In this document: positions 12,139 through 62,498 of the stretch, one piece after another
How the letters are laid out: each line of letters opens with the position of its first letter
How positions within the stretch are numbered: position 1 is the stretch's first letter
NCBI GenBank assembly: GCA_965217115.1
Contig: OZ244239.1
Coordinates: 582,392-646,391 of the forward strand
Direction: 5' to 3'
Source of the DNA: Bdellovibrionales bacterium
Lineage (GTDB): Bacteria > Bdellovibrionota > Bdellovibrionia > Bdellovibrionales > CAYMLA01
Length of the DNA: 64,000 nt
The notes under the pieces: model-generated
What the model was told of the DNA's origin: nothing
Database searches by the model: none
The model's input: the letters and a program-made list of their open reading frames with translations, nothing else
Translations under genes and position numbers: made by a program

Positions 12139-12139
12139 A

Positions 12140-15609: not shown

Positions 15610-15632
15610 TCCAAAAAGTGGAGAGATTAAAT

Positions 15633-24642: not shown

Positions 24643-24657
24643 TTTTACTCCCTCCAA

Positions 24658-47201: not shown

Positions 47202-48290
47202 TCAAACTGAGGCCAAAACTATTTTGGTCACTTTTTTTATATCTTCATAACTCAAATAAGGATGCATGGGTAAGCTCACTACTCTCTGTGCCACATCCTC
47301 AGCATTAGGTGTCGATACATTCCCATAGCCCATCTCCTGGTAAATAGGTTGTTTATGCAAGGGGATCGGATAGTGCACTGCTGTGGGAATTCCTTGCCTC
47401 TTCATATTCTCAATAAATTTCTCTCTATCTGGAACCTCAATAGTGTACTGAGCAAAGACTGACGTCCGTCCCTCCTTAATCAAAGGTGTCTTCACATGGT
47501 CTTGCAGAAGTTCAGTGTACCACTCGCCAACTTGAGCTCTTTTCTTAACCTCTTCAGGGAAAATTTCTAATTTACATAATAAAATGGCTGCTTGTAATGT
47601 ATCCAAACGTCCATTAATTCCTATCAAAGTATGGGTGTATCTGGCTGACTGACCATGATTCACTAATTCTCTCAAAGTCTTAGCTAATTGATCGTCATTG
47701 GTAAAACAAGCACCTCCATCTCCATATCCAGCAAAGGGCTTAGATGGGAAAAAGCTTGTACAAGCAATGGTCGACAAACCACAAGATTTCTTATTTCCAT
47801 ACTCTGCTCCAAACGATTGTGCCCCGTCTTCTATAACAGGAATTCCATGCTTATTTGCAATAACGTTAATCCCATCCATATCAGAGCACTGACCATAGAG
47901 GCTCACAGGAATAATTGCCTTCGTTTTATCAGTGATTTTTTCTTCTATTTTTTTCCCATCAATATTATACGTGTCAGGCTCAATATCGACAAAAATAGCC
48001 TTAGCTCCTAGGAGAGAGATCACCTCCCCCGTCGCAAAAAATGTGAACGGTGTGGTGATAACTTCATCTCCAGATTTGACACCTAAAGCCAAGAGGGCCA
48101 ACAAGAGAGCATCCGTGCCATTGGAGCACCCAATACAGTGCCTTACTCCCACATACGCACTGAGCTTCTTTTCCAATTCTCCAATTTCAGGCCCATTGAT
48201 ATACTGCCCATGGGATAACACATCTTGAATTTTCTTGTCTATCTGGGGCTTAATCAGAGATTGCTGTGTTTTAAGATCTATAAAGTCCAT
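47202..48290 (-). CDS. DegT/DnrJ/EryC1/StrS-family PLP-dependent sugar aminotransferase (PglE/WecE-like)
   Basis: GPEI.ELE, CSNGTDAL and the FFPSKP Lys region. Confidence 0.88.
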   Translation of the reverse strand: MDFIDLKTQQSLIKPQIDKKIQDVLSHGQYINGPEIGELEKKLSAYVGVRHCIGCSNGTDALLLALLALGVKSGDEVITTPFTFFATGEVISLLGAKAIFVDIEPDTYNIDGKKIEEKITDKTKAIIPVSLYGQCSDMDGINVIANKHGIPVIEDGAQSFGAEYGNKKSCGLSTIACTSFFPSKPFAGYGDGGACFTNDDQLAKTLRELVNHGQSARYTHTLIGINGRLDTLQAAILLCKLEIFPEEVKKRAQVGEWYTELLQDHVKTPLIKEGRTSVFAQYTIEVPDREKFIENMKRQGIPTAVHYPIPLHKQPIYQEMGYGNVSTPNAEDVAQRVVSLPMHPYLSYEDIKKVTKIVLASV

Positions 48291-48390: not shown

Positions 48391-49638
48391 GTGAGCCGTA
48401 TTCTACAAACCATTCTAGGCGGCACTTTTTTTCTTTATCTGTTTTCTCTCCCCCTATCTATAACGGGTCTAGAGATGTTTTCATGGCTCTCAGTCATTCT
48501 CTTCTGTTTTGCTCTTCTATTTAAAAACCCTTATTTTCTCGCCTCTTCAAAACAATTCAACTTTAAAAGGATATACTGGGCCCTTCCATTTATTGGAGTT
48601 ATTCTGCTTGAGATATTCTTAGCCCCAAATATCCCAAAGAAACACCAATTCTATATCATCGGAGAACTCAGATGGGGTGTTCTTCTCTTTTTTCTTCCTG
48701 TGCTTTTATTTCATTTTTGGAGTAAAGGAGAGAAAGTATTTTCAATTTTCTGTGCGATTCTCACATTGAGCGCTTCTTACGCTATTATACAGTCTTTCAC
48801 AGGCCTTGATCTACTCAGTGACTCCGACTATTTTCCCCTCAAGTCAGGAGGCCTATGGCGTGCGAAAGGTTTACTCGAAATCATGACCTATTCCCATTCC
48901 ATCTCCATGCTATTTCTCTTTGTCTACTCTACCATTCTTCTGAATTGGGGGAATAAAAAGTGGCTTATTCCATGTGTGATTCTCATAGGAGTAAGCCTCG
49001 TTCTCACTTTCACCCGTGGCATGTGGTTATCACTCTCTATTGCTACAATTACAATCACCTTCATAGTTCATCGCCAGAAGGCCCTACATCTCATTGGAAT
49101 TGGTGTAGGATTAATCTCTGTTTTAGTGTTAACAGTTGATGAAATACAGCATCGTCTTTTACTCACATTTAATTTCTCTGATTCATCCACCTCCGCACGA
49201 TTTCAGTTATGGAAAGCCAATTGGAATATATTTCTCGATCACCCCTTCTTTGGAGTTGGGTTTCAACGGAATAAAGCCCATCTTCCCCAGTATTACAAAT
49301 CTCTGGGAATAGAAGACGGCATGATCAGCCACGCTCATAACAATTATTTCAGTGTTTTAGCTGGCACGGGACTTTTTGGCTTTATTGCTTATTTAGTATT
49401 TGCATTTGGCTTTTTTAAAATAGCCTCCTCTCTTTGGAGAAACCACCGTTGCCTGCCTCTCTTTGATCAGGTCATTGTTCTCGGAAGCCTCGGAGCATTG
49501 ATTAATTTTCATATCGGTGGACTCACAGAGTGTAACTATTTAGATATAGAGGTGTTCCACACCTACATTATCGTTCTCAGCCTACTCATTGCCGTTCTCA
49601 ATAGATACGAAAAACAAAGTAATTACAGTACTTTATAG
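48391..49638 (+). CDS. O-antigen ligase family (Wzy_C domain) membrane protein
   Basis: About 10-12 TM segments, the conserved TFTRGMW segment and the periplasmic-loop motif ...HAHNNYF. Confidence 0.75.
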   Translation: MSRILQTILGGTFFLYLFSLPLSITGLEMFSWLSVILFCFALLFKNPYFLASSKQFNFKRIYWALPFIGVILLEIFLAPNIPKKHQFYIIGELRWGVLLFFLPVLLFHFWSKGEKVFSIFCAILTLSASYAIIQSFTGLDLLSDSDYFPLKSGGLWRAKGLLEIMTYSHSISMLFLFVYSTILLNWGNKKWLIPCVILIGVSLVLTFTRGMWLSLSIATITITFIVHRQKALHLIGIGVGLISVLVLTVDEIQHRLLLTFNFSDSSTSARFQLWKANWNIFLDHPFFGVGFQRNKAHLPQYYKSLGIEDGMISHAHNNYFSVLAGTGLFGFIAYLVFAFGFFKIASSLWRNHRCLPLFDQVIVLGSLGALINFHIGGLTECNYLDIEVFHTYIIVLSLLIAVLNRYEKQSNYSTL

Positions 49639-49658: not shown

Positions 49659-51560
49659 TTGTCATACATTGGGCACATGCTTCATCGAGTCGATTCCCTT
49701 TTTCCGTCACCCTATGCACGTCGAGCTATTATCATCGCTTATGATGCTCTCTGTATTCTATTGGCTTATTATTTAGCCTATGCTCTCCGTTTTGAATCCT
49801 TCTCTATCACTGAATTTGATTCGCCTTTTTTTGTACAGAACTGCTTGTTCAACTTTTTTTTACAACTCTCTACTGTCGCTATCATGGGCATTCATAGAGG
49901 TCTATGGAGATTTTCTAGCACCTCTGATCTCACTCTCATTATCAAAGCTGTCATTACAGCTATAACTATTTCCTTTGTAGGAACTTTTCTTCTAAATCGC
50001 CTGGAGGGCACTCCTCGGTCAGTCTACCTTATCGACAGCTTACTGCTTATTATTTCTTTAAGTGGGGGCCGCTTTGCCTACAGAATATTTAAACAAAAAT
50101 CTAATACAAAACACTCGAAAAATGCCATTCTTGTCGGCGCTGGTTTTGCTGGAGAACAACTCATCCGAGAATTTAAAAGAAACTCTCATAATATGGAGTA
50201 CAACATCTCCTGCATATTAGATGATGATCCTAAAAAAATAAACAGCACCGTTCACGGAATTAAAATCAGAGGAATCATTGATGAACTCCCTAAATTTTGT
50301 GAAAAATACCAGGCCCAACTCATCTTTATTGCAATTCCCTCTGCTTCTAATAACACCATCCGCCACATTTATTCTTTAGCTAAAAAAACTGCCATAAAGG
50401 TCCACACTCTCCCACCCATCACTGATCTCTTGAGTGGAAAAATCTCCTTTAAACAAATGCGTGAAGTACAGGTTGAAGATCTTGTCGGTCGTAATACTGT
50501 CGATCTCCATATCAATAATATGGCTCACACTCACAGAGATAAAATCATTTTAATCACTGGTGCAGGAGGCTCTATTGGCTCCGAGCTTTGCAGGCAAGTT
50601 CTCAAATACCACCCGCGAAAACTCATCATGGTAGATAATAGCGAGTTTAACATCTACAAAATAATCGAAGAATTCACTCCCTATGAGAACTCAACTAAAT
50701 TGGAGTTCTTCACTGACAGTGTTTATGACCAGGAACTCATGGATACTATCTTCGATCAACACTCCCCTAATATAGTATATCATGCTGCCGCCTATAAGCA
50801 CGTTCCTATCATGGAGCAAAACCCCCTCTCAGCAATTAAAACAAATATTTTAGGAACATACATTATTTCTCGTTTGGCTGTAAGACATCATGTGGATAAA
50901 TTCATTTTAATTTCTACAGATAAGGCCGTCAATCCAACTAACATTATGGGCACAACAAAAAGAATCGCTGAGATGATCTGTGAGAAACAAAATATGGAGA
51001 AAAAAACGACTTTCTCCATGGTTCGTTTTGGCAATGTGCTAGGAAGCTCAGGCTCTGTCATCCCCAAATTTAAAAAACAAATTGCTCAAGGTGGTCCTGT
51101 TACTGTCACCCATCCTGAAGTCACCCGTTTTTTTATGACTATTCCAGAGGCCTCACAATTAGTTATTCAAGCAGGATGTCTTGCTAAGGGTGGTGAAATC
51201 TTTGTGCTCGATATGGGCACTCCCATCAAAATTGCTGATCTGGCCAAAGAGCTCATCAATCTAGCTGGTTACGAAGTCGACACTGAGATAGAGATAAAAT
51301 ACACAGGCCTTAAACCTGGAGAAAAACTCTACGAAGAGGTTTTATCTGACAGCGAGTCCACTCGCCCCACAACTCATACCATGGTTCGTGTCGCCCAGAC
51401 ACGTCCTCTACCTGAGCAATTTGATAAACTATTTAAGGAAATTATTAATCTCCCACCAAAAATATCCAAAAATGAGACTCGACGTCTTCTCAAAGAACTT
51501 GTTACTGAGTACTCTCCACAGTATGACAGTCAAATTCTCGATCTATCAGGAGAAAACTAG
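49659..51560 (+). CDS. Membrane-anchored NDP-sugar 4,6-dehydratase (CapD/PglF/WbpM family)
   Basis: 4 N-terminal TM segments, ITGAGGSIGSEL, AAAYKHVP and the STDKAV catalytic region. Confidence 0.88.
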   Translation: MSYIGHMLHRVDSLFPSPYARRAIIIAYDALCILLAYYLAYALRFESFSITEFDSPFFVQNCLFNFFLQLSTVAIMGIHRGLWRFSSTSDLTLIIKAVITAITISFVGTFLLNRLEGTPRSVYLIDSLLLIISLSGGRFAYRIFKQKSNTKHSKNAILVGAGFAGEQLIREFKRNSHNMEYNISCILDDDPKKINSTVHGIKIRGIIDELPKFCEKYQAQLIFIAIPSASNNTIRHIYSLAKKTAIKVHTLPPITDLLSGKISFKQMREVQVEDLVGRNTVDLHINNMAHTHRDKIILITGAGGSIGSELCRQVLKYHPRKLIMVDNSEFNIYKIIEEFTPYENSTKLEFFTDSVYDQELMDTIFDQHSPNIVYHAAAYKHVPIMEQNPLSAIKTNILGTYIISRLAVRHHVDKFILISTDKAVNPTNIMGTTKRIAEMICEKQNMEKKTTFSMVRFGNVLGSSGSVIPKFKKQIAQGGPVTVTHPEVTRFFMTIPEASQLVIQAGCLAKGGEIFVLDMGTPIKIADLAKELINLAGYEVDTEIEIKYTGLKPGEKLYEEVLSDSESTRPTTHTMVRVAQTRPLPEQFDKLFKEIINLPPKISKNETRRLLKELVTEYSPQYDSQILDLSGEN

Positions 51561-51588
51561 TAATGACTTACATCATATTGGTTACATC

Positions 51589-52149
51589 GTGAAAAGATTT
51601 ATTGATTTGTTATTGCTCATCCTAACTATTCCATTAACAGGAACATTAATCATTTTTCTAATTCCAATCATGAGGGTATCTTCAAGGGGGCCCATATTAT
51701 TCTGGTCAGACAGGGTTGGTCTTAATAATAAAATCTTTAGAATGCCTAAACTACGTACTATGAAGGTGAATGCGCCAGTCATCGCGACACATCTTATAAA
51801 GAATCCTGACGAGCTTCTAACTCCTATTGGTGCCTTCCTGAGGTCATCTAGTTTAGATGAATTACCTCAACTATGGTGTGTCCTTATAGGTGAGATGAGT
51901 TTTGTTGGCCCAAGACCTGCCCTTTTTAATCAATATGATTTAGTTAATCTAAGAACACAACATGGCATTGACAAGGTCTTGCCTGGCTTAACTGGTTGGG
52001 CACAAATTAATGGCCGGGATGAAATCTCGATACCTCAAAAAGTCAAACTTGACCTTTATTACAAGCAGAAGCAGTCAGTATTTTTTGATATGAAGATCAT
52101 TTTAAAAACGTTTCTCAATATTATTATAGCTCAAGATGTCTCACATTAA
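51589..52149 (+). CDS. Small polyprenyl-phosphate sugar-1-phosphate transferase (PglC/WecA-unrelated 'bacterial sugar transferase' family)
   Basis: KRFIDLLL...ILFWSDRVGLNNKIFRMPKLRTM...DELPQL...GEMSFVGPRP. I place the start at in-frame GTG 51589, because the ORF-track start (51388) overlaps the upstream gene by 173 nt. Confidence 0.8.
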   Translation: MKRFIDLLLLILTIPLTGTLIIFLIPIMRVSSRGPILFWSDRVGLNNKIFRMPKLRTMKVNAPVIATHLIKNPDELLTPIGAFLRSSSLDELPQLWCVLIGEMSFVGPRPALFNQYDLVNLRTQHGIDKVLPGLTGWAQINGRDEISIPQKVKLDLYYKQKQSVFFDMKIILKTFLNIIIAQDVSH

Positions 52150-52230: not shown

Positions 52231-53712
52231 CTAGTTATCAATTCTTCTGCCATTCTCGGTATTAATAAATCTGTGGTTTAAATTTGATTCAAAAGGTAGG
52301 TCTTTTATAAATTTAGCTTTATCAAAAGAATCTAAAACATCTAAAGTCGTTTTTACAAACAAATCTATGGGAGATTCTTCGTTATTTACTGTTAAAGATT
52401 CAATTTTAAGTTTCTTCCTATCCTCTTTTAATGAATCGCTTACTTGAATTTCATCTAATAAAGAAAATAAATCTCCCTTATACAAATCAAAATAATATGC
52501 TGCACGAGAAAGGCTATTGTTATTCAAGAATTGATTTCTATCACTAAAAGTATCAATTAGTATATAGGGTTTTAGAGAGTACAGCCAGTCTCCCACAGTG
52601 CTCGAAATATCAGACAAAAGACAGTCTGAAGAATTGATACAATCAGTAATATTTTCATAAGTTGAATCAAATTTGGAATGATTTACGACACAATGACCAT
52701 TAGAAGTTTTTAACCCTTCTCGTTTATTGATTTTCAATAATATAGAAGCTATTTTATTTATTATTCGTACCTGAGAAAAATCTTTATAGGAATACGGATG
52801 AGGTCTAAAAATAATTCGGTAACTTTTTTTCAATAATATTCGAACAATTTTTTCTGCTTCATGGATAGATGTAAAATTACTTCCATTATCATAACCTGAC
52901 CAAGTTGTTGTATAAAAAACCGTTCCTTTGAAGTTTTTGGAAGATAATACCGGAAATTTTTCAATAAGTACATCAGAACACTGGGGGCGACTGACAAATT
53001 TAAATTTGTACTCTGGAATGTTAACTCCATTATATCTATAACGATCTTTAGCGGTTTTTCCACTAACAAATATGAAGTCATACATCTGAGAAACTGGATT
53101 ATAACTTGGTGGCTTGTCACTCTCACCATGTAATAATTGAACATGAGTCAATTCACTGAATTTGACCATATGGGTATTGCACTCTGCATTGTTTACATAG
53201 AACACAGACCTGAAACTATACTTCTTAATAGATTTTTCGATTTCTCGAATAGATCGACAAAGCAATACTGGTTCTTTTATCTGTTTAAAAAAGGAATAAT
53301 AATAATATTTTCTCCGTAAAATAATCGCATAACTTTTATTCAGAAGCTTCAAATAAGGTAGCCACATCAGAACTTGTTGCTTACTATTTTCTGGGGCATC
53401 AAAATAAATCACAAAATCCAATTTTTGCACCCGCACGCTTTTTTTTCCACTGTCTATTAGATAAAATTGCCATTTTTTTGTGAGCTTTTTTAACGGTAGC
53501 AAAAGAACTGACATATTATTTTTTATAAAGAAATAATAATATTTTAGAAAAACACGTAACCTTACTTCAAAAACGTCTAATAATACATATAACAGAAATG
53601 AAAAGTAAATAAAATTAACTTCAATAGAGATAAAACTAAAGATAACAACAGCTAAAGATGCTATCAAAATAGCTAATACAAATTTAACAACCCAAAAGTT
53701 TTTAGTATCCAT
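52231..53712 (-). CDS. CDP-polyol (glycerol/ribitol) phosphotransferase, TagB/TagF family
   Basis: The C-terminal catalytic region ...FRPHP... and CLLSDISSTVGDWLYSLKPYILID resembles the Glyphos_transf signature (LITDYSS..FD....KP.I). N-terminal TM segments. Confidence 0.7.
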   Translation of the reverse strand: MDTKNFWVVKFVLAILIASLAVVIFSFISIEVNFIYFSFLLYVLLDVFEVRLRVFLKYYYFFIKNNMSVLLLPLKKLTKKWQFYLIDSGKKSVRVQKLDFVIYFDAPENSKQQVLMWLPYLKLLNKSYAIILRRKYYYYSFFKQIKEPVLLCRSIREIEKSIKKYSFRSVFYVNNAECNTHMVKFSELTHVQLLHGESDKPPSYNPVSQMYDFIFVSGKTAKDRYRYNGVNIPEYKFKFVSRPQCSDVLIEKFPVLSSKNFKGTVFYTTTWSGYDNGSNFTSIHEAEKIVRILLKKSYRIIFRPHPYSYKDFSQVRIINKIASILLKINKREGLKTSNGHCVVNHSKFDSTYENITDCINSSDCLLSDISSTVGDWLYSLKPYILIDTFSDRNQFLNNNSLSRAAYYFDLYKGDLFSLLDEIQVSDSLKEDRKKLKIESLTVNNEESPIDLFVKTTLDVLDSFDKAKFIKDLPFESNLNHRFINTENGRRIDN

Positions 53713-53715
53713 TAA

Positions 53716-54435
53716 TTAAAGCCTTACTACGAGGTTTTCGCTATCAACAAATCGTCCCGTATCACTCAGTAGTAATTTAACTACGTCAGCAACATGCTCT
53801 GGCTGCATAATAGTTGAAAAATCTTCATCTGGAGCTAAAGTTCTTCTTAAATTTGTCGCACATCGACCTGGAGAAATAGATGTTACACGGATGCCCAAAG
53901 GAAGAAGCTCCTCTCTTAAAGATTCACTCATCGCAATAAGAGCTGCCTTAGAACTTGAATAAGTTAACCATCCCCCACGCCCCTTAATACCAGCTGTAGA
54001 AGCAATATTTATAATGTGAGAAAATTTATTTCCTGCTTGTAATAGCTTTTGCACCATCAAGAAAGGAGCAAAGAGATTGACATCAATACTCTGTTTTAAC
54101 TCTTCATAATTTGCTTCAAAAATAGTTTTCGGAGAAGTAAACCCTGCATTATTAATTAAAATGTTAATATCTCTCTTTTCTGCAATGAGCTGATCTAAAA
54201 AAAAATGAACTTCTTCATGGTTTCCCAAGTCACAGTGGACGGTCACCACTTCTTGTTGTGGCCTTGATTTGCGTTTGAGTTCAGAAACCAGGTTTTCAAA
54301 ATCTTCTGACTCTCTGGCTACTAATAGAATTTTTAAGGCTTCTTCTTTCAAAAACATCTGAGATAGAGCAGCACCTATGCCCCTAGATGCACCTGTAACC
54401 ATAATTGTCTTTCCAGCAATATTTCCAGACATCAA
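53716..54435 (-). CDS. Short-chain dehydrogenase/reductase (candidate ribulose-5-phosphate reductase)
   Basis: TGASRGIG, NNAG and YSSSKAA motifs. It overlaps the upstream cytidylyltransferase gene by 4 nt. Confidence 0.85.
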   Translation of the reverse strand: MMSGNIAGKTIMVTGASRGIGAALSQMFLKEEALKILLVARESEDFENLVSELKRKSRPQQEVVTVHCDLGNHEEVHFFLDQLIAEKRDINILINNAGFTSPKTIFEANYEELKQSIDVNLFAPFLMVQKLLQAGNKFSHIINIASTAGIKGRGGWLTYSSSKAALIAMSESLREELLPLGIRVTSISPGRCATNLRRTLAPDEDFSTIMQPEHVADVVKLLLSDTGRFVDSENLVVRL

Positions 54436-55121
54436 GAACTCTTCCCCGAATCTGTAAGTAAAAACTCAGCAATATGAATATCTAATGGAGTCGTCACCTT
54501 TATATTTTTCTCAGATCCTTTTATAATTTGAACTCTTCCTCCGTTAGCAAACACTAAGGAGGCATCTTCAGTGTAATTTGCCCCCTCTTTCAAGGCCCTA
54601 ACATGAGCTCTTCGAAGTTCGTCAGATGTGAATTTTTGCGGAAGCTGAACATTAATTAATCGATCTCTATCTAAAATTTCACTTATGCAGTTATTTTTTT
54701 TATCAGCCTCCAAAACAGTGAATGGAACTGGAAGTACATACGTTACATTCTGGACTGGATGTTCAATAAGATCAATGAACTCCTGTTCTGTCACCAAAGG
54801 ACGAGCTGCTTCGTGTAATATTACAGTCTCAGTTGTACAAACATCAAGCATTCGGCGGACAGAATCTTGACGAGTTTGACCAGCTGACACAAACTCAATA
54901 GGTTTTTGGATAGCGTATTTTGAAGTAAGATTTTGTAATTTATCTAACCAGCCGTCAGGGTAATTCACAACAATTTTGGTAATAGCATCGATATTACAGG
55001 CAATACGCAATGAATATATAAAAAGAGGTATGGACTTTACTCTGATAAATTGCTTTGGGGTTTCACCGCCAATCCTTCGGCCAAGTCCACCATTAAGTAA
55101 CAATAACGTTGCCATAAACAC
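54432..55121 (-). CDS. IspD/TarI-family cytidylyltransferase (candidate ribitol-5-phosphate cytidylyltransferase)
   Basis: LLNGGLGRRIGGETPKQF N-terminal nucleotide-binding motif; 229 aa; context with an SDR and a TagF-like enzyme. Confidence 0.75.
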   Translation of the reverse strand: MFMATLLLLNGGLGRRIGGETPKQFIRVKSIPLFIYSLRIACNIDAITKIVVNYPDGWLDKLQNLTSKYAIQKPIEFVSAGQTRQDSVRRMLDVCTTETVILHEAARPLVTEQEFIDLIEHPVQNVTYVLPVPFTVLEADKKNNCISEILDRDRLINVQLPQKFTSDELRRAHVRALKEGANYTEDASLVFANGGRVQIIKGSEKNIKVTTPLDIHIAEFLLTDSGKSS

Positions 55122-55141
55122 CTCGTAATTGCGTTATAACT

Positions 55142-56380
55142 CTAAGAGATAATAACTTTATTTAAACAAGTCAATCCATCTACCTGGTAAATTAACTTTT
55201 GCAATCGTAACTGATTATAAAGACTCTCATACGCTTGTATATCTGTTTGGTATAGCATAATCAAGCGTCTAATTAAGAAGCAAATAGTATGTAAATTTCT
55301 TACAAAAGTTAGGTTTGTTGTGTCTGAAGAACACGAAAATTTTTTCTTTTCAACTCTCCACTCACCATAATGCTCTGTCAAATATAAATCAGCCTCACTT
55401 GGCCCAAAAACTTCTTGTTTCCCAATACTATAACTTTTTAATTCAAAAGAAGTGTTCACCCAGTGCATAGAGCCCGAGCCGTGCCAACACTCGCCATTTC
55501 GGTTCTTATGGAAAAATACATCTAAATTTATGCCATTTTTATGAATAAGCTTAAGCAAGGAGGGTTCTTTATTTAAATACAACTTTCCTTTAGGACTCTT
55601 TTGAATTTCTGACTGCATATCAAACTTTGCAATGGAAAAAAGAGACGAATTATTTTGAATTTTCACTAGAAACTGGTCTAAATCTAATCCATCCAAATGC
55701 ACTCCGACATCAATATCGACATCGTGTTTTAAGAAAAAACCTTCTCGAACTGCTCCAAGGAAAGTTCCTCCTGTCACAAACCAATTCCAGTCCTCTTTAG
55801 GAACTACTTTTTGAAAATCACTTAAGGTCTCTGGGGCTTTATGTATAAATTCATTTCCTTCCTCAGCTTCACTTTCTAAACTTTTCCTTGAATTTTGAGA
55901 TTGAGGCTTGTTCAAGAGTTTCAATAAATGATTTATTTTTCTATTGTACTCTTTCTGGTATTTTTTAAATAACTCAATATCTTCATTCTCTAATGACCTA
56001 TGAGCAGATTCGGCTAAAATAGATGCTTGATAACCATAATAAAGAGCATTTGCACCGTTATCCTGAATATCAGGCTTTTTTAAAAAATGAGATTGCTTCT
56101 TCAATAATTTATCAGAAGAGAGATGGGTAAAGTCAAAGAATGGGTCAAAAGAAATATCATATTTCGTCCAGCCATTTCTAATATACCAGCCCGCTAAACG
56201 ACCTGCATCTTTGAACTCATCCTTTCTAAAGATATTAAAAACATGCTTGGCAAAACTTAGCTTCAAGGTTGCAAGAGCAACAATTATAAAAGATGATATA
56301 GAAAAAAAGAAGCATACAGGCAAGGCGTGTTTCTGATTTAAAAAACGGATAATTCTAAAAGATCTCGGTATCTTAAACAT
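55142..56380 (-). CDS. LicD-family phosphotransferase (nucleotidyltransferase fold)
   Basis: The TGGTFLGAVREGFFLKHDVDIDVG motif corresponds to the LicD GTLLGAVRH.GFIPWDDDIDI signature. N-terminal TM. Confidence 0.65.
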   Translation of the reverse strand: MFKIPRSFRIIRFLNQKHALPVCFFFSISSFIIVALATLKLSFAKHVFNIFRKDEFKDAGRLAGWYIRNGWTKYDISFDPFFDFTHLSSDKLLKKQSHFLKKPDIQDNGANALYYGYQASILAESAHRSLENEDIELFKKYQKEYNRKINHLLKLLNKPQSQNSRKSLESEAEEGNEFIHKAPETLSDFQKVVPKEDWNWFVTGGTFLGAVREGFFLKHDVDIDVGVHLDGLDLDQFLVKIQNNSSLFSIAKFDMQSEIQKSPKGKLYLNKEPSLLKLIHKNGINLDVFFHKNRNGECWHGSGSMHWVNTSFELKSYSIGKQEVFGPSEADLYLTEHYGEWRVEKKKFSCSSDTTNLTFVRNLHTICFLIRRLIMLYQTDIQAYESLYNQLRLQKLIYQVDGLTCLNKVIIS

Positions 56381-56442
56381 ATACAGGCATTATACAAGAC
56401 AGGGGACAAATAGCAATCATCTTATTTTGAAAACATCAATAA

Positions 56443-57129
56443 TTACAGCTTATTGTAGGCCTCCACCGCATCATCTATTCCTCCATAAAAACAAGATATC
56501 CCGTTATTAATTACCAGCCCTTTTTCACATAGCTCTTTCAGAGTGTCTTGATTATGAGAGACAATCACTGCAGTAGATTTATTAATTTTACTTTTTATGG
56601 TTTTAAAAGATTTCTCTTTAAAAGCCCTATCACCTACACCTAAAACTTCATCTATTAAGATAATATCTGGCTCTATCGCATTGGAAATAGCAAACCCTAA
56701 GCGAGCCCTCATGCCAGAAGAATACGTGCCCACTGGATAATCGATAAAATCTTCTAATTCAGAATACTCAATTACCTCGTCCATTTTTTTGAGAGCTTCT
56801 ACCTTAGACAAGCCAAGTAACATTCCAACAAGAATAACATTTTTACGCCCCGATAGATGATTCAAAAATCCTGCTTGTAGGGAAAGAAGAAATGAAGGAC
56901 CAAAATTATTAGTCATAGTGCCTTTATCATTTTCAATAATACCAGCGATCAAAGACAACACTGTACTTTTGCCTGCTCCATTCTTACCCAAAATACCTAA
57001 AGTTTGATGCCTATTTAATATAAAATTCACATCTTTGAGTGCCCAGAATTCACTAACTCCGTAATTAATTCCTTTTTTTTTACGATGCTGAAATTTAACA
57101 CCAACATTCTTAAATTCTAACCGAGACAT
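56443..57129 (-). CDS. Polysaccharide/teichoic-acid-type ABC exporter ATP-binding protein (Wzt/TagH/KpsT-like)
   Basis: Walker A GKNGAGKST, signature YSSGM and Walker B IILIDEV. Confidence 0.88.
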   Translation of the reverse strand: MSRLEFKNVGVKFQHRKKKGINYGVSEFWALKDVNFILNRHQTLGILGKNGAGKSTVLSLIAGIIENDKGTMTNNFGPSFLLSLQAGFLNHLSGRKNVILVGMLLGLSKVEALKKMDEVIEYSELEDFIDYPVGTYSSGMRARLGFAISNAIEPDIILIDEVLGVGDRAFKEKSFKTIKSKINKSTAVIVSHNQDTLKELCEKGLVINNGISCFYGGIDDAVEAYNKL

Positions 57130-57138
57130 AAATAACCT

Positions 57139-57897
57139 CTAAATAACAATTTTTGCATATCTTTTTCCATTTTTCTTTAATATCCAATATCCCAAAATAT
57201 AAAGAAAAATGCCCAGGGCACTTAGTATACTTAAACTAAAAAATTCAGGAGAGCTCTTGTACATTAAAATATTCCTAAAACTCTGTATAGAACCAACAAT
57301 TGGGTTAAGTTTAATAAAAAACTGTAGGTCACTTGGCAAGTCATAGACATTGAATAAAACACCCGAAGGATAAAATAATAACCTGAGAAAATGTGGCAAA
57401 AACAACTTTAAATCAGGTATTAAAGGGAATATAGATGAAAGAAATAAACCAAACCCAGCTATAAATATAAACATGGATATTAAAGGTAGAAAAATTAAAG
57501 TATGGTAAATTGTAATTCCATAAGAGAAACTAAAACACACAAATACAAAAATGAAAATAGTCATGAACTTCACAAAAACAGCTAACGTCTCTGATAGTGG
57601 GAATACTATTTTATGTATATTTACTTTTTTTATAAGGCTCGCTTTTGATAGGATAGAATTGGCTGATTTTGTAACAGAGATATTAAGCCATCTCCATACG
57701 ATAACACCAATAATTAAAAATTGAATATAATCAGCCCCTCCTCTATTTAAAATGACTTTAAATAAAAGAAAATATATACAAATATTTAAAGCTGGCTCAA
57801 TCACCCACCATAAATAGCCTAAATATGATTTTTGAGATTCTTCCTCTAACTTAAAGCTCGTGTAAATTAAAAGAAGGTTTAGAAAATGCCCTCCCAA
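57139..57897 (-). CDS. ABC-2 type polysaccharide exporter permease (Wzm/TagG/KpsM-like)
   Basis: 6 TM segments; SYLGYLWWVIEP N-terminal motif; TTG start. Confidence 0.8.
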   Translation of the reverse strand: MGGHFLNLLLIYTSFKLEEESQKSYLGYLWWVIEPALNICIYFLLFKVILNRGGADYIQFLIIGVIVWRWLNISVTKSANSILSKASLIKKVNIHKIVFPLSETLAVFVKFMTIFIFVFVCFSFSYGITIYHTLIFLPLISMFIFIAGFGLFLSSIFPLIPDLKLFLPHFLRLLFYPSGVLFNVYDLPSDLQFFIKLNPIVGSIQSFRNILMYKSSPEFFSLSILSALGIFLYILGYWILKKNGKRYAKIVI

Positions 57898-57998
57898 TAC
57901 TCCTACCCTCTCTTCGTCTTTTAGTTCTAAATAATTTCTATAGTATGGCTTTATCGAGTTCTCTTCCGAGAGTCAAACTCCACTTTACTTACCTTCTT

Positions 57999-58139
57999 TC
58001 ATTTTTTATTCTCCATGGATTCATATTTCTGATTCCAGTTAGAATGTGTCACATTCGTTAGAGGGAGCCCTACATACCCTAATCCCACGATTCCGATTTT
58101 TGCTGACTTGTTCTCTAATTTTTCAATCAATTCTTGCAT
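57999..58139 (-). pseudogene. 5' remnant of an NDP-sugar dehydrogenase gene (UDP-glucose/GDP-mannose dehydrogenase family)
   Basis: From ATG 58139 it reads MQELIEKLENKSAKIGIVGLGYVGLPL, the Rossmann N-terminus of this family. It then continues as unrelated sequence to a stop after about 20 more codons. Confidence 0.65.
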
Positions 58140-58181
58140 ACAAGAAACCCTGACATTCTTATTCACACAATGACGCATACT

Positions 58182-58360
58182 ACACAACGGGCGATGGGGA
58201 TTCAAAGCATTCTCTCCATAAGGTTTAATTATTTTAAACCTTTACCATGTGCTGCTCAGCGTTATTTCTAAAACACAACGGGCGATGGGGATTCAAAGCA
58301 TTCTCTCCATAAGGTTTAATTATTTTAAACCTTTACCATGTGCTGCTCAGCGTTATTTCT
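58182..58360. repeat. Perfect tandem duplication of an 88-nt unit (58182-58269 and 58273-58360, 3-nt spacer AAA)
   Basis: Compared base by base; the two copies are identical. It lies in the divergent intergenic region between the dehydrogenase remnant and manC. Confidence 0.97.
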
Positions 58361-58543
58361 CTGCTGACACGCCCCCTTCATCCCATTTCAGCCTTCTCCT
58401 AAGCGCCTATAAGAAAATAATAGCCTACTCAAATACTGTATTGTAGATTTCTAGCTGCAAGAACCTCTTCTGCTGTAAGTATGATAAGAGAGGAAGCTAG
58501 CTAACATCAGTTAAATTTATTCTTATAAAAGGAAAATCATCAA

Positions 58544-59971
58544 ATGATCCCTGTGATTCTATCAGGTGGAAGCGGAACCAGGCTGTGGCCTGTGTCACGG
58601 ACCAATTATCCTAAACAATTCTGCCAACTCTTTCCTGAACCTCTGATGATTCAAACCCTTAAAAGAGTTGCCTCCTTTGGACCTGCTACTGTTATCACCA
58701 CCGAAGATCTCAAAGTGTTAACTGAAAAAACTCTTAAGAGCCCCACTCTCTCTGACACTGCTTGTATCTACGAACCTTTTGGCCAAAATACAGCCCCTGC
58801 CATAGCTCTTGTCTGCCAAATTCTTAGCAGACAAGGTAAAAAATCAGAAGCCGTGGGGGTTTTTCCAGCCGATCAACTCATAGAAAACAACTCTGTCTTT
58901 CAACAAGCCATACAGCTCAGTGAACAATACGCTCAAAAAAATCAAGTTGTCACACTCGGCATCAAACCCACCCACCCTGCCACTGGCTATGGTTATATCG
59001 AAATCAAAAATGAATCCAGCAGTAACACGACTTCTGCAGAAGACTTTGTGGAGATATCTATTCATAAAGAAAAACCTCTCAAGGCCTTCCCTATCGCTAA
59101 TTTTCACGAAAAACCCGATTCAACAACTGCACAAGCCTACCTAAATAAGGAAACTTTTTTCTGGAATGCTGGTATTTTTATTTTTAAAGTCCAAACTATG
59201 ATCGATCTTTTAACGAAACACGCTCCTAAGCTCTGGGCAACTATCTCACAAATTAACTCTGATCTTAGTAATATCAAAGAAATTTATAACTCTGTCGAAA
59301 GCATCAGTATTGATCACGCTCTTATAGAGAAACTCTCCCCTGAACAACTCACCTGTATTCCAACTGATATGGGTTGGAATGATATTGGCTCCTGGGATGC
59401 CATGTCTGATATACCCGCTAAAATAAAATCCTCTCAAACAATCCAAATTAACTCTAAAAACAATTATCTCTTCTCTGAAAAAAACAAGACCTATGCCCTT
59501 AATAACGTTTCCGAACTAATCGTTGTCGATACTAACGACGCTCTGCTTATTACTCGCAAGGGGTGCTCTCAAGAGATTAGAGAGGTTGTCAAAAAATTAA
59601 ATGCCGAGGAAAATCCGCGAGTAAAAGATTTTCCCTCTGAACAAAAGCCATGGGGCCAGTATGAAATTTTAAAAGATTCAACTAAATTCAAAACTAAAGC
59701 AATCACCATTGACCCCAAAAGTCAGATTTCCTATCAATCCCATAAACAACGGGAAGAACACTGGATCATTGTCTCAGGCTCTGGAGAAGTTGTTCTTAAC
59801 GGTGAGACAATCTCTGTTAAAAAAGGCAGTTACATCCATATTCCTCAGGAAAGCAAACATCGCATACGTAATACAGAGAACATCCCTCTTGAATTTATTG
59901 AAGTCCAAATGGGGGAATATTTTGGTGAAGACGATATCATTCGTTATGATGACGACTACAATAGAACCTAA
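58544..59971 (+). CDS. manC: Mannose-1-phosphate guanylyltransferase / mannose-6-phosphate isomerase (type II PMI-GMP)
   Basis: IPVILSGGSGTRLWPVSR and a C-terminal cupin (WG.Y......K.I.I.P...IS.Q.H..R.EHW). Confidence 0.9.
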   Translation: MIPVILSGGSGTRLWPVSRTNYPKQFCQLFPEPLMIQTLKRVASFGPATVITTEDLKVLTEKTLKSPTLSDTACIYEPFGQNTAPAIALVCQILSRQGKKSEAVGVFPADQLIENNSVFQQAIQLSEQYAQKNQVVTLGIKPTHPATGYGYIEIKNESSSNTTSAEDFVEISIHKEKPLKAFPIANFHEKPDSTTAQAYLNKETFFWNAGIFIFKVQTMIDLLTKHAPKLWATISQINSDLSNIKEIYNSVESISIDHALIEKLSPEQLTCIPTDMGWNDIGSWDAMSDIPAKIKSSQTIQINSKNNYLFSEKNKTYALNNVSELIVVDTNDALLITRKGCSQEIREVVKKLNAEENPRVKDFPSEQKPWGQYEILKDSTKFKTKAITIDPKSQISYQSHKQREEHWIIVSGSGEVVLNGETISVKKGSYIHIPQESKHRIRNTENIPLEFIEVQMGEYFGEDDIIRYDDDYNRT

Positions 59972-60003
59972 TATCATCATACAGCGATAAGGAATCTTTC
60001 TCT

Positions 60004-60531
60004 ATGAGCCTCGTACTTAAACAAATTTTTTCCTTTCTGAAGCTTCTCAATTCAGAAACAGGAACAACACAAATCGCCCTCGGACTATCCCTTGGAATCA
60101 TCCTAGGTTTTGCTCCAACTCTTTCTCTACAAACTCTCTTCGTTTTTGGTCTTAGTTTTGTTTTCCGTATTCAATTAGGAGCTGTCTTTCTCTCAACATT
60201 TGTTTTTAAATTTTTAGCCTATCTCGCCGATCCTCTCTGTCATGAAATTGGCCGCCTTGCCCTTGAAAATACCTCAATGCAACCTCTCTTCACAACACTC
60301 TATAATATGCCCGTAGTTCCCTTAAGTCAGTTTAATAACACCATCGTTATGGGATCTGCCATTCTCTCTATTCTTCTCTCTATTCCCATGGTTTTTATCT
60401 TTCAAAAACTCATTCAAAAATATCGACAAAACATACTCGAACACTTTAAAAACAGCCGCTTTTACAAAATCCTTAAAACCACTTCATTTTACCGATGGTA
60501 TCATAAGTACAACGAACTCTATGGTTCATAA
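60004..60531 (+). CDS. DUF2062 / TIGR03546-like small membrane protein
   Basis: 175 aa. The N-terminal ...LL.S..G...IALG.SLG...GF.P...LQ and 3-4 TM segments, plus pairing with the next gene, match my recollection of the TIGR03546/TIGR03545 pair. Confidence 0.5.
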   Translation: MSLVLKQIFSFLKLLNSETGTTQIALGLSLGIILGFAPTLSLQTLFVFGLSFVFRIQLGAVFLSTFVFKFLAYLADPLCHEIGRLALENTSMQPLFTTLYNMPVVPLSQFNNTIVMGSAILSILLSIPMVFIFQKLIQKYRQNILEHFKNSRFYKILKTTSFYRWYHKYNELYGS

Positions 60532-60542
60532 AAGGCCTCGTC

Positions 60543-62498
60543 ATGACGAAAAAAATAAAAAAACCTCCTTTTAGGCTAGAGGCCCTCATTCCATTTGCTA
60601 TTGTTATTTTTCTTTTTTCTATTTATTCCCATTTCTTTTTTCATTCCCATGTAAAAAATCTTATCCAATTCTCCGCAACATGGATCAACGGCGCCGAAGT
60701 TAATATTGGCAGCTTTAAATCTAGTATCTTCAATGCTAGTTTTGAATTTAAAAATATTCAAATCACAGACCCTCAGAATCCTAAACGAAATTCCATAGAG
60801 ATTGAACGTATACACTCTCAAGCCCTCTGGGATGGGCTACTTAGAGGAAAACTCATTGTTGAACTCGCCAGTGTTGAAGGAATTGCAATTAACTCTCTAC
60901 GAAGAACCCAAGGAAAAACCCTTTCACAATCAGATAGATCTAGCCGCCAGAGAACCATTGAGAAAACAGAAAAAATAGCAACAACTCACATTCAAGAAGA
61001 GTTTTCCAATAACATTCTCTCCGATATGGCCTCTATTGCAGGGGGAAATAGCTCCAAAAAACAGTTAGAACTCATTCAAGGAAATCTGCAAACTTCGAAA
61101 TACATTGAAAAACTTAAAAAAGAGTTGCAAAAAAAACAACGCTCTTGGCAAGAGAGGCTTAAGACTCTACCTACTAATAAAGCTCTTAAAGAGTTACAGG
61201 TGAAATTAAAAAATATAAAAACCTCCAACTTTAAAAATGTCTTCGAACTTCAAAATTCTATAGAACGGCTAAAAACCGTCATTGATGACTCTAAGGGAAA
61301 ATATAAAACCATTTTCAGCGCAAACAAAGAGTTAAAACAAGATATCTCTTCTATTCAAAAAAAAATCAACAGTATCAACCATTTTGTTAAAAATGATATT
61401 CAATCTTTGGAGAAAAAACTTCGCATACCATCTCTTGATCCCAAAGAAATTTCTAAATCTCTTTTTCAAAAACAGTTTACCCCCTATCTACAAAAATTCG
61501 ATGCTTACATGAAGATAGCTGAAGAATACATGCCCCCTAAAAAAACAGCTGAGCAACTAAAAGAAGAACGTAAACAAAAACTCTCCCCCCATAAAAGACA
61601 TCAAGGGCGTAATTATCACTTTGGCACATCCACATCATATCCCCTCGTTTGGATAAAAAAAGTTGTCATTTCATCCAAAGAGAATAAGTCTAAAAATACG
61701 GGGTCTTTACGTGGAGAAATCCTAAATATCTCAACAAATCAATCTCAAATTAATAAACCTCTTATTGCATCCATATCTGGAGATTTCCCTCAGAAAAACA
61801 TCTACGGCCTCATCTCCCATCTCACCATTGATCATCGAAGCACAGTGCCATCAGAAACTCTTGACCTCTCAGTTACCCGTTACCCAATAGAGACACGGGA
61901 AATATCCAACACCCCAGAGGTGAAGCTTATTATAACCGAGGCCCAGGGGGGATTAAAACTCAAAGCCTTGCGCACAAACAATCTGGTAACAATGGTCATC
62001 AACAATCATTTCTCTTCCCTTAAGTATGAAATTGATTCTAAACAGAAAGAAATTAAAAATCTTGTTACCAATGTTATGGGCAATGTTCCTAAAATCTCAA
62101 TCAGCGCTTCGGCAAAAGGCTCTTTTCCACTTATGAACTGGCATATCTCTTCTAATATCGGCTACGAATTACAAAAAGGATTTGAACAGCAGATCAGAGA
62201 AAGAGTCAAAGGAGCAAAGAGAAGGATCAAAAAAGAGGTCAACGGAGTTATTTCTAAACAAAAAAATCAACTCAAAAAAAGTATGTACGATTTTAAAAAT
62301 CAATATCAAAAAGAAATAAATAACTTAAAACAGGAAGTACAATCAACACGTAAGTCAGCTAATATGAAAATTTCTCGGGCTAAAAAACAGGAAGGAAAGA
62401 AAGCTAAAGATAAAATTGAAAAAGAACTCAATAAAATTCTTAAAGATAAGGATGCTAAAAAGCTTCTTGATGATCTAAAAAAGAAGTTCAAATTCTAA
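60543..62498 (+). CDS. TIGR03545-like large uncharacterised envelope protein
   Basis: 651 aa. One N-terminal TM, a long coiled-coil K/E/Q-rich middle, a beta-rich C-terminal part and a Lys-rich tail. It lies directly downstream of the DUF2062-like gene. Confidence 0.45.
   Translation: MTKKIKKPPFRLEALIPFAIVIFLFSIYSHFFFHSHVKNLIQFSATWINGAEVNIGSFKSSIFNASFEFKNIQITDPQNPKRNSIEIERIHSQALWDGLLRGKLIVELASVEGIAINSLRRTQGKTLSQSDRSSRQRTIEKTEKIATTHIQEEFSNNILSDMASIAGGNSSKKQLELIQGNLQTSKYIEKLKKELQKKQRSWQERLKTLPTNKALKELQVKLKNIKTSNFKNVFELQNSIERLKTVIDDSKGKYKTIFSANKELKQDISSIQKKINSINHFVKNDIQSLEKKLRIPSLDPKEISKSLFQKQFTPYLQKFDAYMKIAEEYMPPKKTAEQLKEERKQKLSPHKRHQGRNYHFGTSTSYPLVWIKKVVISSKENKSKNTGSLRGEILNISTNQSQINKPLIASISGDFPQKNIYGLISHLTIDHRSTVPSETLDLSVTRYPIETREISNTPEVKLIITEAQGGLKLKALRTNNLVTMVINNHFSSLKYEIDSKQKEIKNLVTNVMGNVPKISISASAKGSFPLMNWHISSNIGYELQKGFEQQIRERVKGAKRRIKKEVNGVISKQKNQLKKSMYDFKNQYQKEINNLKQEVQSTRKSANMKISRAKKQEGKKAKDKIEKELNKILKDKDAKKLLDDLKKKFKF

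Follow-up and report, generated by a model that had tools for sequence, protein, structure and literature searches.

What kind of surface polymer is encoded by a cassette that joins an ATP-binding cassette (ABC) exporter to a cytidylyltransferase, a reductase, and two phosphotransferases, and how did such a cassette come to lie in an apparently Gram-negative genome? We addressed this question for positions 52231 to 57897 of a 64,000-nucleotide stretch of contig OZ244239.1, which was analyzed as a whole and is referred to here as the window. The original prediction, made from the sequence alone, described six tightly packed minus-strand genes at these positions and proposed that they direct the synthesis of a ribitol phosphate polymer; a listing of the open reading frames (ORFs) confirmed the coordinates. 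By analogy with characterized systems, we favor on balance the view that these genes belong to a single operon for the synthesis, assembly, and ABC transporter-dependent export of a poly(alditol phosphate) resembling teichoic acid, with poly(ribitol-5-phosphate) as the most probable product. The analysis yielded the gene content of the locus, the family and fold assignments of its products, a module conserved across phyla, a composition anomaly, and an alternative cassette in a relative. The prediction as a whole was thus partly supported: its gene content and families stood, and ribitol is no more than the probable polyol, the IspD-like protein having missed the NCBIfam cut-offs for both ispD and ribitol-5-phosphate cytidylyltransferase.

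The genes of the cassette are spaced by 9 (wzm-wzt), 62 (wzt-licD), 20 (licD-ispD), and 3 (SDR-tagF) nucleotides. The gene of the short-chain dehydrogenase/reductase (SDR) overlaps the preceding IspD-like gene by 4 nucleotides if it starts at TTG and by 1 nucleotide (TGATG) if it starts at ATG, so that the previously described 4-nucleotide overlap holds for the TTG start only. The SDR gene is translationally coupled to the IspD-like gene. The proteins of the window were scanned against Pfam, using gathering scores, and NCBIfam, using model cut-offs. Five of the six family assignments were borne out by Pfam matches that were strong or above the gathering score: the permease with PF01061 (ABC2_membrane, 29.0 bits, gathering score 26.9), the ATPase with PF00005 (ABC_tran, 67 bits), the IspD-like protein with PF01128 (157 bits), the SDR with PF00106 (adh_short, 161 bits), and the TagF-like protein with PF04464 (Glyphos_transf, 30.5 bits, gathering score 22.1), the last match being partial (residues 253 to 385 only). 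As had been predicted, no GT-A or GT-B glycosyltransferase, no kpsC/S/D/E gene, and no tagD was present among the scanned ORFs of the 44- to 64-kb region and the rest of the window. Between 51.9 and 58.6 kb, neither promoter matches (29, versus 26.6 ± 4.2 in shuffled sequence) nor terminator matches (3 versus 2.9) were in excess, and therefore no operon boundaries can be drawn from them. Rfam and tRNA scans of the window returned three tRNAs and nothing tied to the cassette.

The IspD-like/SDR pair is the part of the cassette that would determine the polyol, and it has the layout of a split Bcs1/Acs1: an IspD module is followed by a classical SDR, the genes overlap, and the pair is kept beside a TagF-like gene in more than 40 loci. 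Bcs1/Acs1 synthesizes CDP (cytidine diphosphate)-ribitol (PMC10299916; Pereira and Brown 2004, cited in PMC10918830). The IspD-like protein remained below the NCBIfam cut-offs for the ispD equivalog TIGR00453 (165.2 versus 181.3 bits) and for NF001186 (137 versus 253 bits). Its matches in plasmid records, annotated, where at all, as ispD or IspD/TarI, were at most 35% identical, compared with 46 to 76% identity to IspD-like genes of other phyla whose neighbors encode an SDR and a TagF-like protein. No annotated fused Bcs1-like homolog was found by tblastn of the plasmid collection, which returned only ispD and IspD/TarI genes within that 35% limit. The SDR translation carries the TGxxxGxG and YxxxK motifs, and the protein is 52 to 78% identical to SDRs adjoining IspD and TagF at other loci. 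By analogy, ribitol is the most likely polyol. Two lactobacillus plasmids (Lactiplantibacillus plantarum NZ_CP059171.1 and Levilactobacillus brevis NZ_CP156921.1) have an IspD/TarI-family cytidylyltransferase annotated directly beside a LicD-family protein, so that CDP-alditol synthesis is combined with a LicD transferase there as well.

The distribution of the pair was examined by scanning one genome per GTDB species with a profile of the TagF subfamily and then searching 80 fetched loci with all window proteins. The IspD-like, SDR, and TagF-like genes were adjacent in more than 40 of these loci. Most of them belong to Actinobacteria (Brachybacterium, Glycomyces, Microbacterium, Micromonosporaceae, and others), and the loci closest to the window are from diderms, namely, Hyphomonadaceae, Rhodobacterales (L002 and L008), Rhizobium sp. 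NFR03, Shewanella electrodiphila, and a Pirellulaceae metagenome-assembled genome. SDR and IspD identities were 49 to 61% to the diderm loci and 46 to 54% to Actinobacteria; TagF identities to the actinobacterial loci were 32 to 39%. The Hyphomonadaceae locus has an extra LicD-like gene and a second TagF-like gene. The Pirellulaceae locus (L006, matched by L081) has the same LicD-IspD-SDR-TagF order together with an ABC transporter, and between its Wzt and Wzm genes lies a conserved 406-amino-acid protein without a Pfam domain (L006, 4813 to 6033; L081, 7796 to 9016) that has no counterpart in the window. The recurrence of the triad across phyla indicates a mobile module rather than a housekeeping ispD: IspD-SDR-TagF is a mobile CDP-alditol/polyol-phosphate module common to Actinobacteria and scattered Gram-negative bacteria. 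The idea that the cassette is unique to this lineage was discarded, as it is shared with relative L001 and with L006/L081. The original prediction had set the split IspD-SDR pair against Gram-positive TarI/TarJ, in which the reductase is of the medium-chain dehydrogenase/reductase (MDR) type. This contrast holds for Firmicutes, but the same split pair occurs in dozens of Actinobacteria, and judged from these loci it is the normal actinobacterial, Gram-positive form rather than a Gram-negative peculiarity. A search of the literature on actinobacterial or Bdellovibrio teichoic acid genetics returned nothing directly relevant.

The TagF-like protein is predicted from its sequence to use a CDP-polyol as donor of polyol phosphate and to release CMP (cytidine monophosphate). 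Hundreds of its homologs carry PF04464, and nearly all have a precomputed match to that family. Two histidines, H195 (LHG, in QLLHGESDK) and H305 (RPHP, in FRPHPYSY), are invariant in an alignment of the 15 closest homologs and, by our reading of the motifs (PMC11666461), would correspond to the two catalytic histidines of TagF. The single sequence gave no match in the PDB, and the family profile matched the TagF-like capsule polymerase Cps3D (8qoy; E 1.6e-4). The AlphaFold2 (AF2) model had a predicted local distance difference test (pLDDT) score of 80, and its best Foldseek match was TagF (3l7l; E 1.2e-9), with TarL in complex with CDP-ribitol (8va1) and Bcs3 (8a0m) among the further matches.

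The LicD assignment was less direct. The protein alone scored 19.6 bits against PF04991, below the gathering score of 22.6, but all 11 of its word-index homologs matched this family (E ≤ 0.1; best, 1.3e-9), and several family representatives exceeded 22.6 bits. The family profile matched the fukutin-related protein FKRP (E 3.2e-5) over the GGxLLGxxR...DxDxD motif, with DxDxD lining up with DYDVD of FKRP. The metal-binding motif GG(S/T)xLGxxR...DxDxD is present, and G205, T206, L208, G209, R212, H219, D220, D222, D224, and G226, as well as D287 and H291, are invariant in the family. The protein begins with a transmembrane helix, followed by a helical domain of some 150 residues (together about residues 1 to 175) and then by a C-terminal domain of nucleotidyltransferase fold that carries the invariant HDxDxDxG motif; a Pfam scan did not recognize the helical domain as tetratricopeptide repeat (TPR). 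In Foldseek searches with the AF2 model (pLDDT 86.3), ranks 1 to 13 were all FKRP (E 3.6e-5 to 2e-4), among them its complex with CDP-ribitol (6kam), and the nucleotidyltransferase LnuA came next; about 180 columns aligned with FKRP at 14 to 16% identity, with a TM-score of about 0.3 over the whole protein. The LicD/fukutin assignment, which Pfam did not support for the protein alone, therefore holds once the profile and model evidence are added. An apparent rarity of the family, suggested by the 11 word-index matches, was due to the limited sensitivity of the word-indexed search: with an exhaustive HMM search, the number of cluster representatives rose to 346 at E ≤ 1e-30, of which many had the full length of about 400 amino acids, and to 13,068 at E ≤ 1e-3. 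No LicD-TagF fusion occurred among the long representatives, which contained only LicD and, in one case, an aminotransferase.

The two exporter components resemble those of O-polysaccharide and teichoic acid systems. The best NCBIfam models for the ATPase were galactan Wzt and teichoic acid TagH (E about 1e-45). The permease matched the NCBIfam models for KpsM and galactan Wzm weakly and far below their cut-offs (KpsM, 39.5 versus 300 bits), and with no KpsC/S/D/E-like ORF in the window, the locus does not have the makeup of a group 2 (Kps) capsule locus. Within the set of fetched loci, Wzt and Wzm have their nearest relatives in Actinobacteria.

The genes next to the cassette would supply a lipid-linked primer and a ligation step, as originally proposed: PglF-like, DegT, PglC-type, and Wzy_C genes are all present (Table 1). 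The PglC-type gene probably starts at the ATG at 51523; it is convergent with the cassette, at a distance of 81 nucleotides. The PglF-type dehydratase is 66% identical to its homolog in the relative L001. No acetyltransferase accompanies these genes, so the predicted primer would be a 4-amino-4,6-dideoxy-N-acetylhexosamine (HexNAc) with a free or otherwise modified amine. The Wzy_C protein scored 61 bits against the putative O-glycosylation ligase model TIGR03097, below its cut-off. Of the parts of an ABC-dependent O-polysaccharide locus, the Wzm/Wzt pair is present, the priming enzyme is of the PglC type rather than WecA, and the Wzy_C protein, which passes its Pfam threshold (83 bits), may be a ligase, an O-oligosaccharyltransferase, or Wzy. 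No GT-A or GT-B domain is available among the scanned window ORFs for chain extension by Leloir glycosyltransferases. A flippase-like LPG_synthase_TM protein and a phosphoglucose isomerase (PGI) lie beyond DegT on the left; ManC and then a TIGR03546/TIGR03545 pair lie to the right of the cassette. The homologs of PGI place the window tentatively near Bdellovibrionota and hence among diderm, Gram-negative bacteria, and a LolC/MacB-like permease in the window and the Wzy_C gene are consistent with this placement. GlyA, searched against the PDB, yielded no taxonomic signal.

Table 1. Features of the cassette and its surroundings (positions in the window)
Feature	Position	Strand	Details
Wzm-like (Wzm/TagG-like) ABC-2 permease	57139-57897	-	252 aa; first gene of operon
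Wzt/TagH-like ABC ATPase	56443-57129	-	228 aa; nucleotide-binding domain only, without C-terminal glycan-binding domain
LicD/fukutin-family phosphotransferase	55142-56380	-	412 aa
IspD/TarI-family cytidylyltransferase, predicted CDP-alditol synthase subunit	54432-55121	-	229 aa
Classical SDR, predicted ketose-phosphate to alditol-phosphate reductase	53716-54435	-	239 aa
TagF-family CDP-polyol phosphotransferase	52231-53712	-	493 aa; two N-terminal hydrophobic helices
PglC-type polyprenyl-phosphate sugar-phosphate transferase, small	51388-52149	+	PF02397, 180 bits; EPS_sugtrans, E 7.6e-64
PglF/CapD-type membrane-associated UDP-HexNAc 4,6-dehydratase	49659-51560	+	PF02719, 394 bits; PseB-like, E 2e-58
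Wzy_C-domain protein (WaaL-type ligase, O-oligosaccharyltransferase, or Wzy)	48391-49638	+	PF04932, 83 bits
DegT/PglE-type sugar aminotransferase (4-amino-4,6-dideoxy-HexNAc primer)	47202-48290	-	PF01041, 397 bits; PseC-like, E 1e-73
Perfect 91-bp tandem duplication	58182-58360		Tandem Repeats Finder: period 91, 2.0 copies, 100% matches
Truncated ORF upstream of wzm	57899-58139	-	46 codons; Rossmann N-terminus, then stop codons

From homology and genomic context, we infer the following route for all steps. The SDR would use NADPH to reduce a ketose phosphate, which, if the reaction is that of Bcs1, would be ribulose-5-phosphate and would yield ribitol-5-phosphate, and the IspD-like enzyme would join the alditol phosphate to cytidine triphosphate (CTP) to give a CDP-alditol. 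On the cytoplasmic face, the PglF-like dehydratase, DegT, and the PglC-type transferase would build undecaprenyl-PP-(4-amino-4,6-dideoxy-HexNAc). The TagF-like and LicD-like enzymes would then transfer alditol phosphate from the CDP-alditol, one priming on the amino sugar and the other elongating the chain. The original prediction implied that the TagF-like enzyme polymerizes; however, the roles may be the reverse, since in Actinobacillus polymerization is the task of CpsC, of the LicD family, and priming that of the TagF-like CpsA (PMC11666461). By this analogy, elongation may fall to the LicD-like enzyme and priming to the TagF-like one, with the opposite assignment equally open. The finished lipid-linked chain would be exported by Wzm/Wzt, and the Wzy_C protein would ligate it to the lipid A-core or to protein.

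The cassette appears to have been acquired by horizontal exchange. It had been described as the most AT-rich part of the window, and indeed its guanine-plus-cytosine (GC) content of 0.329, versus 0.397 for the rest, is the minimum among all sliding windows of equal size, with GC at third codon positions (GC3) at 0.27 versus 0.37 (Mann-Whitney p = 7e-4). The rearrangement scars proposed for its right end are present as well: a 646-bp intergenic region (57898 to 58543) between wzm and manC contains the 91-bp duplication, and the truncated ORF lies directly upstream of wzm. The first 27 residues of this ORF form the Rossmann N-terminus 'KIGIVGLGYVGLPL' (begins MQELIEKLENKSAKIGIVGLGYVGLPL), which, on a reading of the motif, makes it a possible remnant of a displaced nucleotide-sugar dehydrogenase gene. 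The 46-amino-acid peptide had no significant match in the PDB (E 0.1 or worse); the N-termini of NDP-GalNAcA dehydrogenase and Cap5O were among the nonsignificant matches at E about 1.

Two relatives carry the same site. The metagenomic relative L001 (PGI 61 to 68% identical) has the same cassette beside the same primer, ligase, and PGI genes, with identities of 78% (Wzt), 72% (LicD), 76% (IspD), 78% (SDR), and 54% (TagF); its DegT and phosphoglycosyltransferase are different paralogs, 32 and 38% identical to those of the window. The more distant relative L083 (ENA ERZ25073868 contig; PGI about 60% identical) has the same PGI-flippase-DegT-WzyC flank, with a DegT that is 75% identical, but carries an HpcH/HpaI aldolase, a phosphoglycosyltransferase, a MurJ/Wzx-type flippase, and a second Wzy_C protein in place of the ABC/TagF cassette. 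This different cassette at the same site indicates a variable surface-glycan locus with exchanged cassettes. Moreover, the nearest IspD and SDR homologs are in other phyla, at 50 to 61% identity, whereas the flanking PGI is only 42 to 47% identical to that of its nearest named relatives. The proposal of cassette replacement by horizontal transfer is therefore supported by the L083 cassette and the cross-phylum IspD/SDR homologs, as well as by the GC and GC3 anomaly and the right-end scars.

Some further observations concern these contigs. In L001, the LicD-like gene (430 to 1696) is split into two overlapping ORFs of 180 and 242 amino acids on a contig of about 2.5x coverage, which could be a sequencing frameshift or a real pseudogene. 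The L083 region (1 to 10810) also carries a DAO oxidoreductase, its phosphoglycosyltransferase is small, and its PGI is called as two pieces (176 and 269 amino acids). In the window, a 726-bp stretch without a credible gene (46477 to 47201) separates the LPG_synthase_TM gene from DegT and contains only short ORFs, e.g., one of 57 amino acids at 46496 to 46669 on the minus strand. The counterparts of these two genes lie close together in L083 and L001, and the stretch may be decayed DNA from rearrangement.

Three rival explanations have to be weighed against a poly(ribitol phosphate) operon. It is fairly unlikely, in our judgment, that the IspD-like/SDR pair makes CDP-arabinitol, -erythritol, -mannitol, or -glucitol instead and that the product is the corresponding poly(alditol phosphate), perhaps with a different order of reactions, in which cytidylyl transfer precedes reduction. 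This would agree with the score of the IspD-like protein below the D-ribitol-5-phosphate cytidylyltransferase cut-off and with the better match of IspD structures than of TarI structures, the natural substrate of IspD being an erythritol derivative. There are also precedents for other polyols: in Campylobacter jejuni, another CDP-alditol route leads to CDP-6-D-glucitol by cytidylyl transfer and then reduction by an SDR-superfamily enzyme (PMC10918830), and Actinobacteria, which hold most of the homologous triads, have wall polymers of poly(mannitol phosphate) besides poly(ribitol phosphate) (PMC6801904). However, the C. jejuni reductase has an extra N-terminal helix and binds a CDP-linked substrate (PMC10918830), and the known Gram-negative teichoic acid of Sulfitobacter contains ribitol (PMC3210612). 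CDP-ribitol is also the substrate of FKRP, to which the model of the LicD-like protein is most similar. The only biochemically characterized combination of an IspD-like enzyme with an SDR known to us is the CDP-ribitol synthase Bcs1/Acs1, and we take the C. jejuni reductase to be larger than the classical SDR of the cassette.

It is distinctly improbable that the locus decorates rather than polymerizes, the TagF-like and LicD-like enzymes each adding one or a few alditol-phosphate residues, so that a short phosphorylated unit is exported as a lipid-linked oligomer or as a cap or substituent of a glycan encoded elsewhere. Single additions are catalyzed by the TagF-family primases TagB and CpsA (PMC11666461) and by FKTN and FKRP, each of which adds one ribitol phosphate (PMC4873967). 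The Wzt protein has no C-terminal glycan-binding domain, no chain-length regulator is visible, and manC adjoins the cassette without a mannosyltransferase, so that the genome must have further glycan genes outside this region. Against this, one operon with a dedicated ABC exporter, a dedicated CDP-alditol synthase, and two phosphotransferases is typical of polymer synthesis, and CpsC is a precedent for a LicD-family polyol-phosphate polymerase. The histidine of the xHG motif, which is replaced in the CpsA primase by tyrosine (Y94 in Cps7A; PMC11666461), is invariant here (H195), as in TagF and TarL, and in this respect the TagF-like protein resembles polymerases rather than the primase. A merely coincidental neighborhood, in which the IspD-like gene is the housekeeping ispD of the methylerythritol phosphate (MEP) pathway and the SDR an unrelated FabG-like reductase beside a polysaccharide exporter, is extremely improbable. 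The scanned ORFs of the 64-kb window contained no second ispD, ispF, or other MEP gene. PF01128 and TIGR00453 are indeed the best-scoring models for the IspD-like protein. However, the TIGR00453 score is below the equivalog cut-off, the protein is much closer to the IspD-like genes beside SDR and TagF-like genes across phyla than to the plasmid matches, and its gene is coupled to the SDR gene and lies in a block that has the highest AT content in the window and was apparently acquired.

Several points weigh against a poly(ribitol phosphate) operon itself. The IspD-like protein scored only 111.4 bits against the ribitol-5-phosphate cytidylyltransferase model NF001183 (cut-off, 166), and a bona fide IspD structure, that of Bacillus subtilis, outscored the TarI structures in the PDB (106 bits, E 1.9e-29, versus 75 and 68 bits, E 5e-20 and 8e-18). 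The LicD-like protein alone stays below its Pfam threshold. The PF04464 match spans only about 130 residues of the TagF-like protein, and generic GT-B enzymes nearly equal TagF in Foldseek score for its model. Nothing in the sequence distinguishes a polymerase from a single-addition transferase, and the Wzy_C protein is compatible with a ligase, an O-oligosaccharyltransferase, or a polymerase. A GT4 glycosyltransferase adjoins the Pirellulaceae version of the module, which indicates that other versions make glycosylated products. The phylum and the diderm status are deduced from one flanking protein, PGI, at 42 to 47% identity to its nearest named relatives, which are Bdellovibrionota. All functional steps proposed for this organism rest on sequence and models rather than on biochemistry or chemistry.

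If the cassette does make a poly(alditol phosphate), a sugar-free chain of polyol phosphate would give the bacterial surface a strongly anionic polymer, whose amino-sugar base might be zwitterionic. Such chemistry is normally associated with Gram-positive walls. The locus would link actinobacterial wall teichoic acids, the Actinobacillus poly(glycerol-phosphate) linker made by TagF-like and LicD enzymes, and the Sulfitobacter teichoic acid through one conserved module, which could be reconstituted in vitro. A second candidate would join CpsC as a polyol-phosphate polymerase of the LicD family, and the two-gene CDP-alditol synthase, being compact, might serve for enzymatic CDP-ribitol synthesis. 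The practical importance is limited, as the organism is uncultured and each functional step is predicted. A wider proposal, which taken as a whole is tentative and rather doubtful, is that many diderms (Bdellovibrionota-like bacteria, Rhodobacterales, Hyphomonadaceae, Rhizobium, Shewanella, and Planctomycetes) carry an unrecognized class of genuine teichoic acids of Gram-negative bacteria. Such polymers would consist of poly(alditol phosphate) without sugars, on an undecaprenyl-PP-amino-sugar primer, made without a glycosyltransferase by a TagF-like primase and a LicD-family polymerase, exported by a TagGH-like transporter, and ligated by a WaaL-type enzyme to the lipid A-core as O-antigen, with the whole module exchanged horizontally with Actinobacteria.

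Other parts of the window also attracted attention. In the region from 58544 to 62498, ManC, which passes its NCBIfam cut-off and would serve GDP-mannose synthesis, adjoins the cassette without any mannosyltransferase, and the uncharacterized TIGR03546 (DUF2062)/TIGR03545 pair after it passes both NCBIfam cut-offs. A XerC/XerD-like tyrosine recombinase (22947 to 23828, minus strand; Phage_integrase and a SAM-like N-terminal domain) lies beside two ORFs without Pfam matches (23965 to 25401). Directly downstream of tRNA-Arg(TCG) (10408 to 10484) is a low-GC block (region 10408 to 17141; gene GC 0.30 to 0.37) with at least five consecutive ORFs (11234 to 17141) that have no Pfam match, the largest of which also has no NCBIfam match. 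It is followed by a DUF4331 protein (17200 to 18414) and may be an acquired island.

Among known systems, CpsA-CpsB-CpsC of Actinobacillus pleuropneumoniae serotypes 3 and 7, which makes a linker of poly(glycerol-3-phosphate) for group 2 capsules (Litschko et al. 2024, PMC11666461), is the closest characterized precedent. There, CpsA (PF04464, TagF-like) is the primase and CpsC (PF04991, LicD family), which has an N-terminal helical (TPR) domain, is the polymerase (PMC11666461). As judged from descriptions, domains, and size rather than from a direct sequence alignment, both systems are Gram-negative and combine a cytidylyltransferase for the supply of a CDP-polyol with TagF-like and LicD-family enzymes, which here too would build a sugar-free chain, and with an ABC transporter for export; the LicD-family enzymes share the N-terminal helical and C-terminal nucleotidyltransferase domains (378 amino acids there, 412 here). 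In contrast, Actinobacillus has a glycerol-3-phosphate cytidylyltransferase, whereas the IspD-like/SDR pair points to an alditol of four or more carbons, probably ribitol. The acceptor is lyso-phosphatidylglycerol-poly(3-deoxy-D-manno-octulosonic acid) there and a predicted undecaprenyl-PP-amino sugar formed by a PglC-type transferase here. The cassette is accompanied by no KpsC/S/D/E and no downstream glycosyl-polyol-phosphate polymerase (CpsD), and a Wzy_C ligase-like gene adjoins it.

The Haemophilus influenzae type b and a capsule system is similar in another respect. In Bcs1 (Acs1; Cifuente et al. 2023, PMC10299916), an IspD-like domain precedes an SDR-type domain, just as the two genes follow each other here; Bcs1 makes CDP-ribitol from ribulose-5-phosphate, NADPH, and CTP, and the TagF-like CroT domain of Bcs3 transfers ribitol phosphate (PMC10299916). 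Both systems have a TagF-like transferase of ribitol phosphate, here as a prediction with Bcs3 (8a0m) among the structural matches, and ABC-dependent export. However, Bcs1 is one fused polypeptide rather than the product of two coupled genes, the likeness being one of domain order and not of alignment, and Bcs3 alternates ribose and ribitol phosphate by means of further domains that are not present here, in a group 2 capsule with Kps export. The cassette follows the same logic as Staphylococcus aureus TarI/J/L with TarG/H and the actinobacterial loci, in which CDP-alditol synthesis is combined with a polymerase of the TagF family and with export by a two-component ABC transporter. The resemblance extends to TarL with CDP-ribitol as a top structural match of the TagF-like model and, for Actinobacteria, to the exact IspD, SDR, and TagF subfamily at the identities given above. 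The window differs from Gram-positive wall teichoic acid systems in having no TagO/TagA/TagB-type linkage-unit genes and no LytR-CpsA-Psr (LCP) ligase; its primer would be a PglC/PglF/DegT amino sugar with Wzy_C adjacent, as in diderm O-antigen and O-glycosylation loci, and its reductase is an SDR, unlike the MDR-type TarJ of Firmicutes.

In the mammalian ISPD (CRPPA)-FKTN-FKRP pathway, an IspD-family enzyme likewise supplies the CDP-alditol and LicD/fukutin-fold DxD enzymes (PMC4873967; FKRP structures 6kaj to 6kan) transfer alditol phosphate onto HexNAc and then onto alditol phosphate; the donor for both FKTN and FKRP is CDP-ribitol (PMC4873967). That pathway operates in the eukaryotic Golgi, adds exactly two residues, and has no TagF-like enzyme and no exporter. 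A teichoic acid of the 1,5-poly(ribitol phosphate) type is made by Sulfitobacter brevis KMM 6006, a Gram-negative alphaproteobacterium from the sea (cited in PMC3210612). As described there, it is chemical proof of poly(ribitol phosphate)-type and poly(glycerol phosphate) chains in a proteobacterium, although that polymer is substituted with GlcNAc and alternates with poly(glycerophosphate). To our knowledge, its genes have not been assigned. Teichoic-acid-like polymers are thus already known in Gram-negative bacteria, chemically and, for group 2 capsules, enzymatically. What differs here is the platform, uncharacterized as far as could be found, which joins a PglC-type primer, a Wzm/Wzt exporter, and a Wzy_C ligase-like protein with neither Kps machinery nor a glycosyltransferase.

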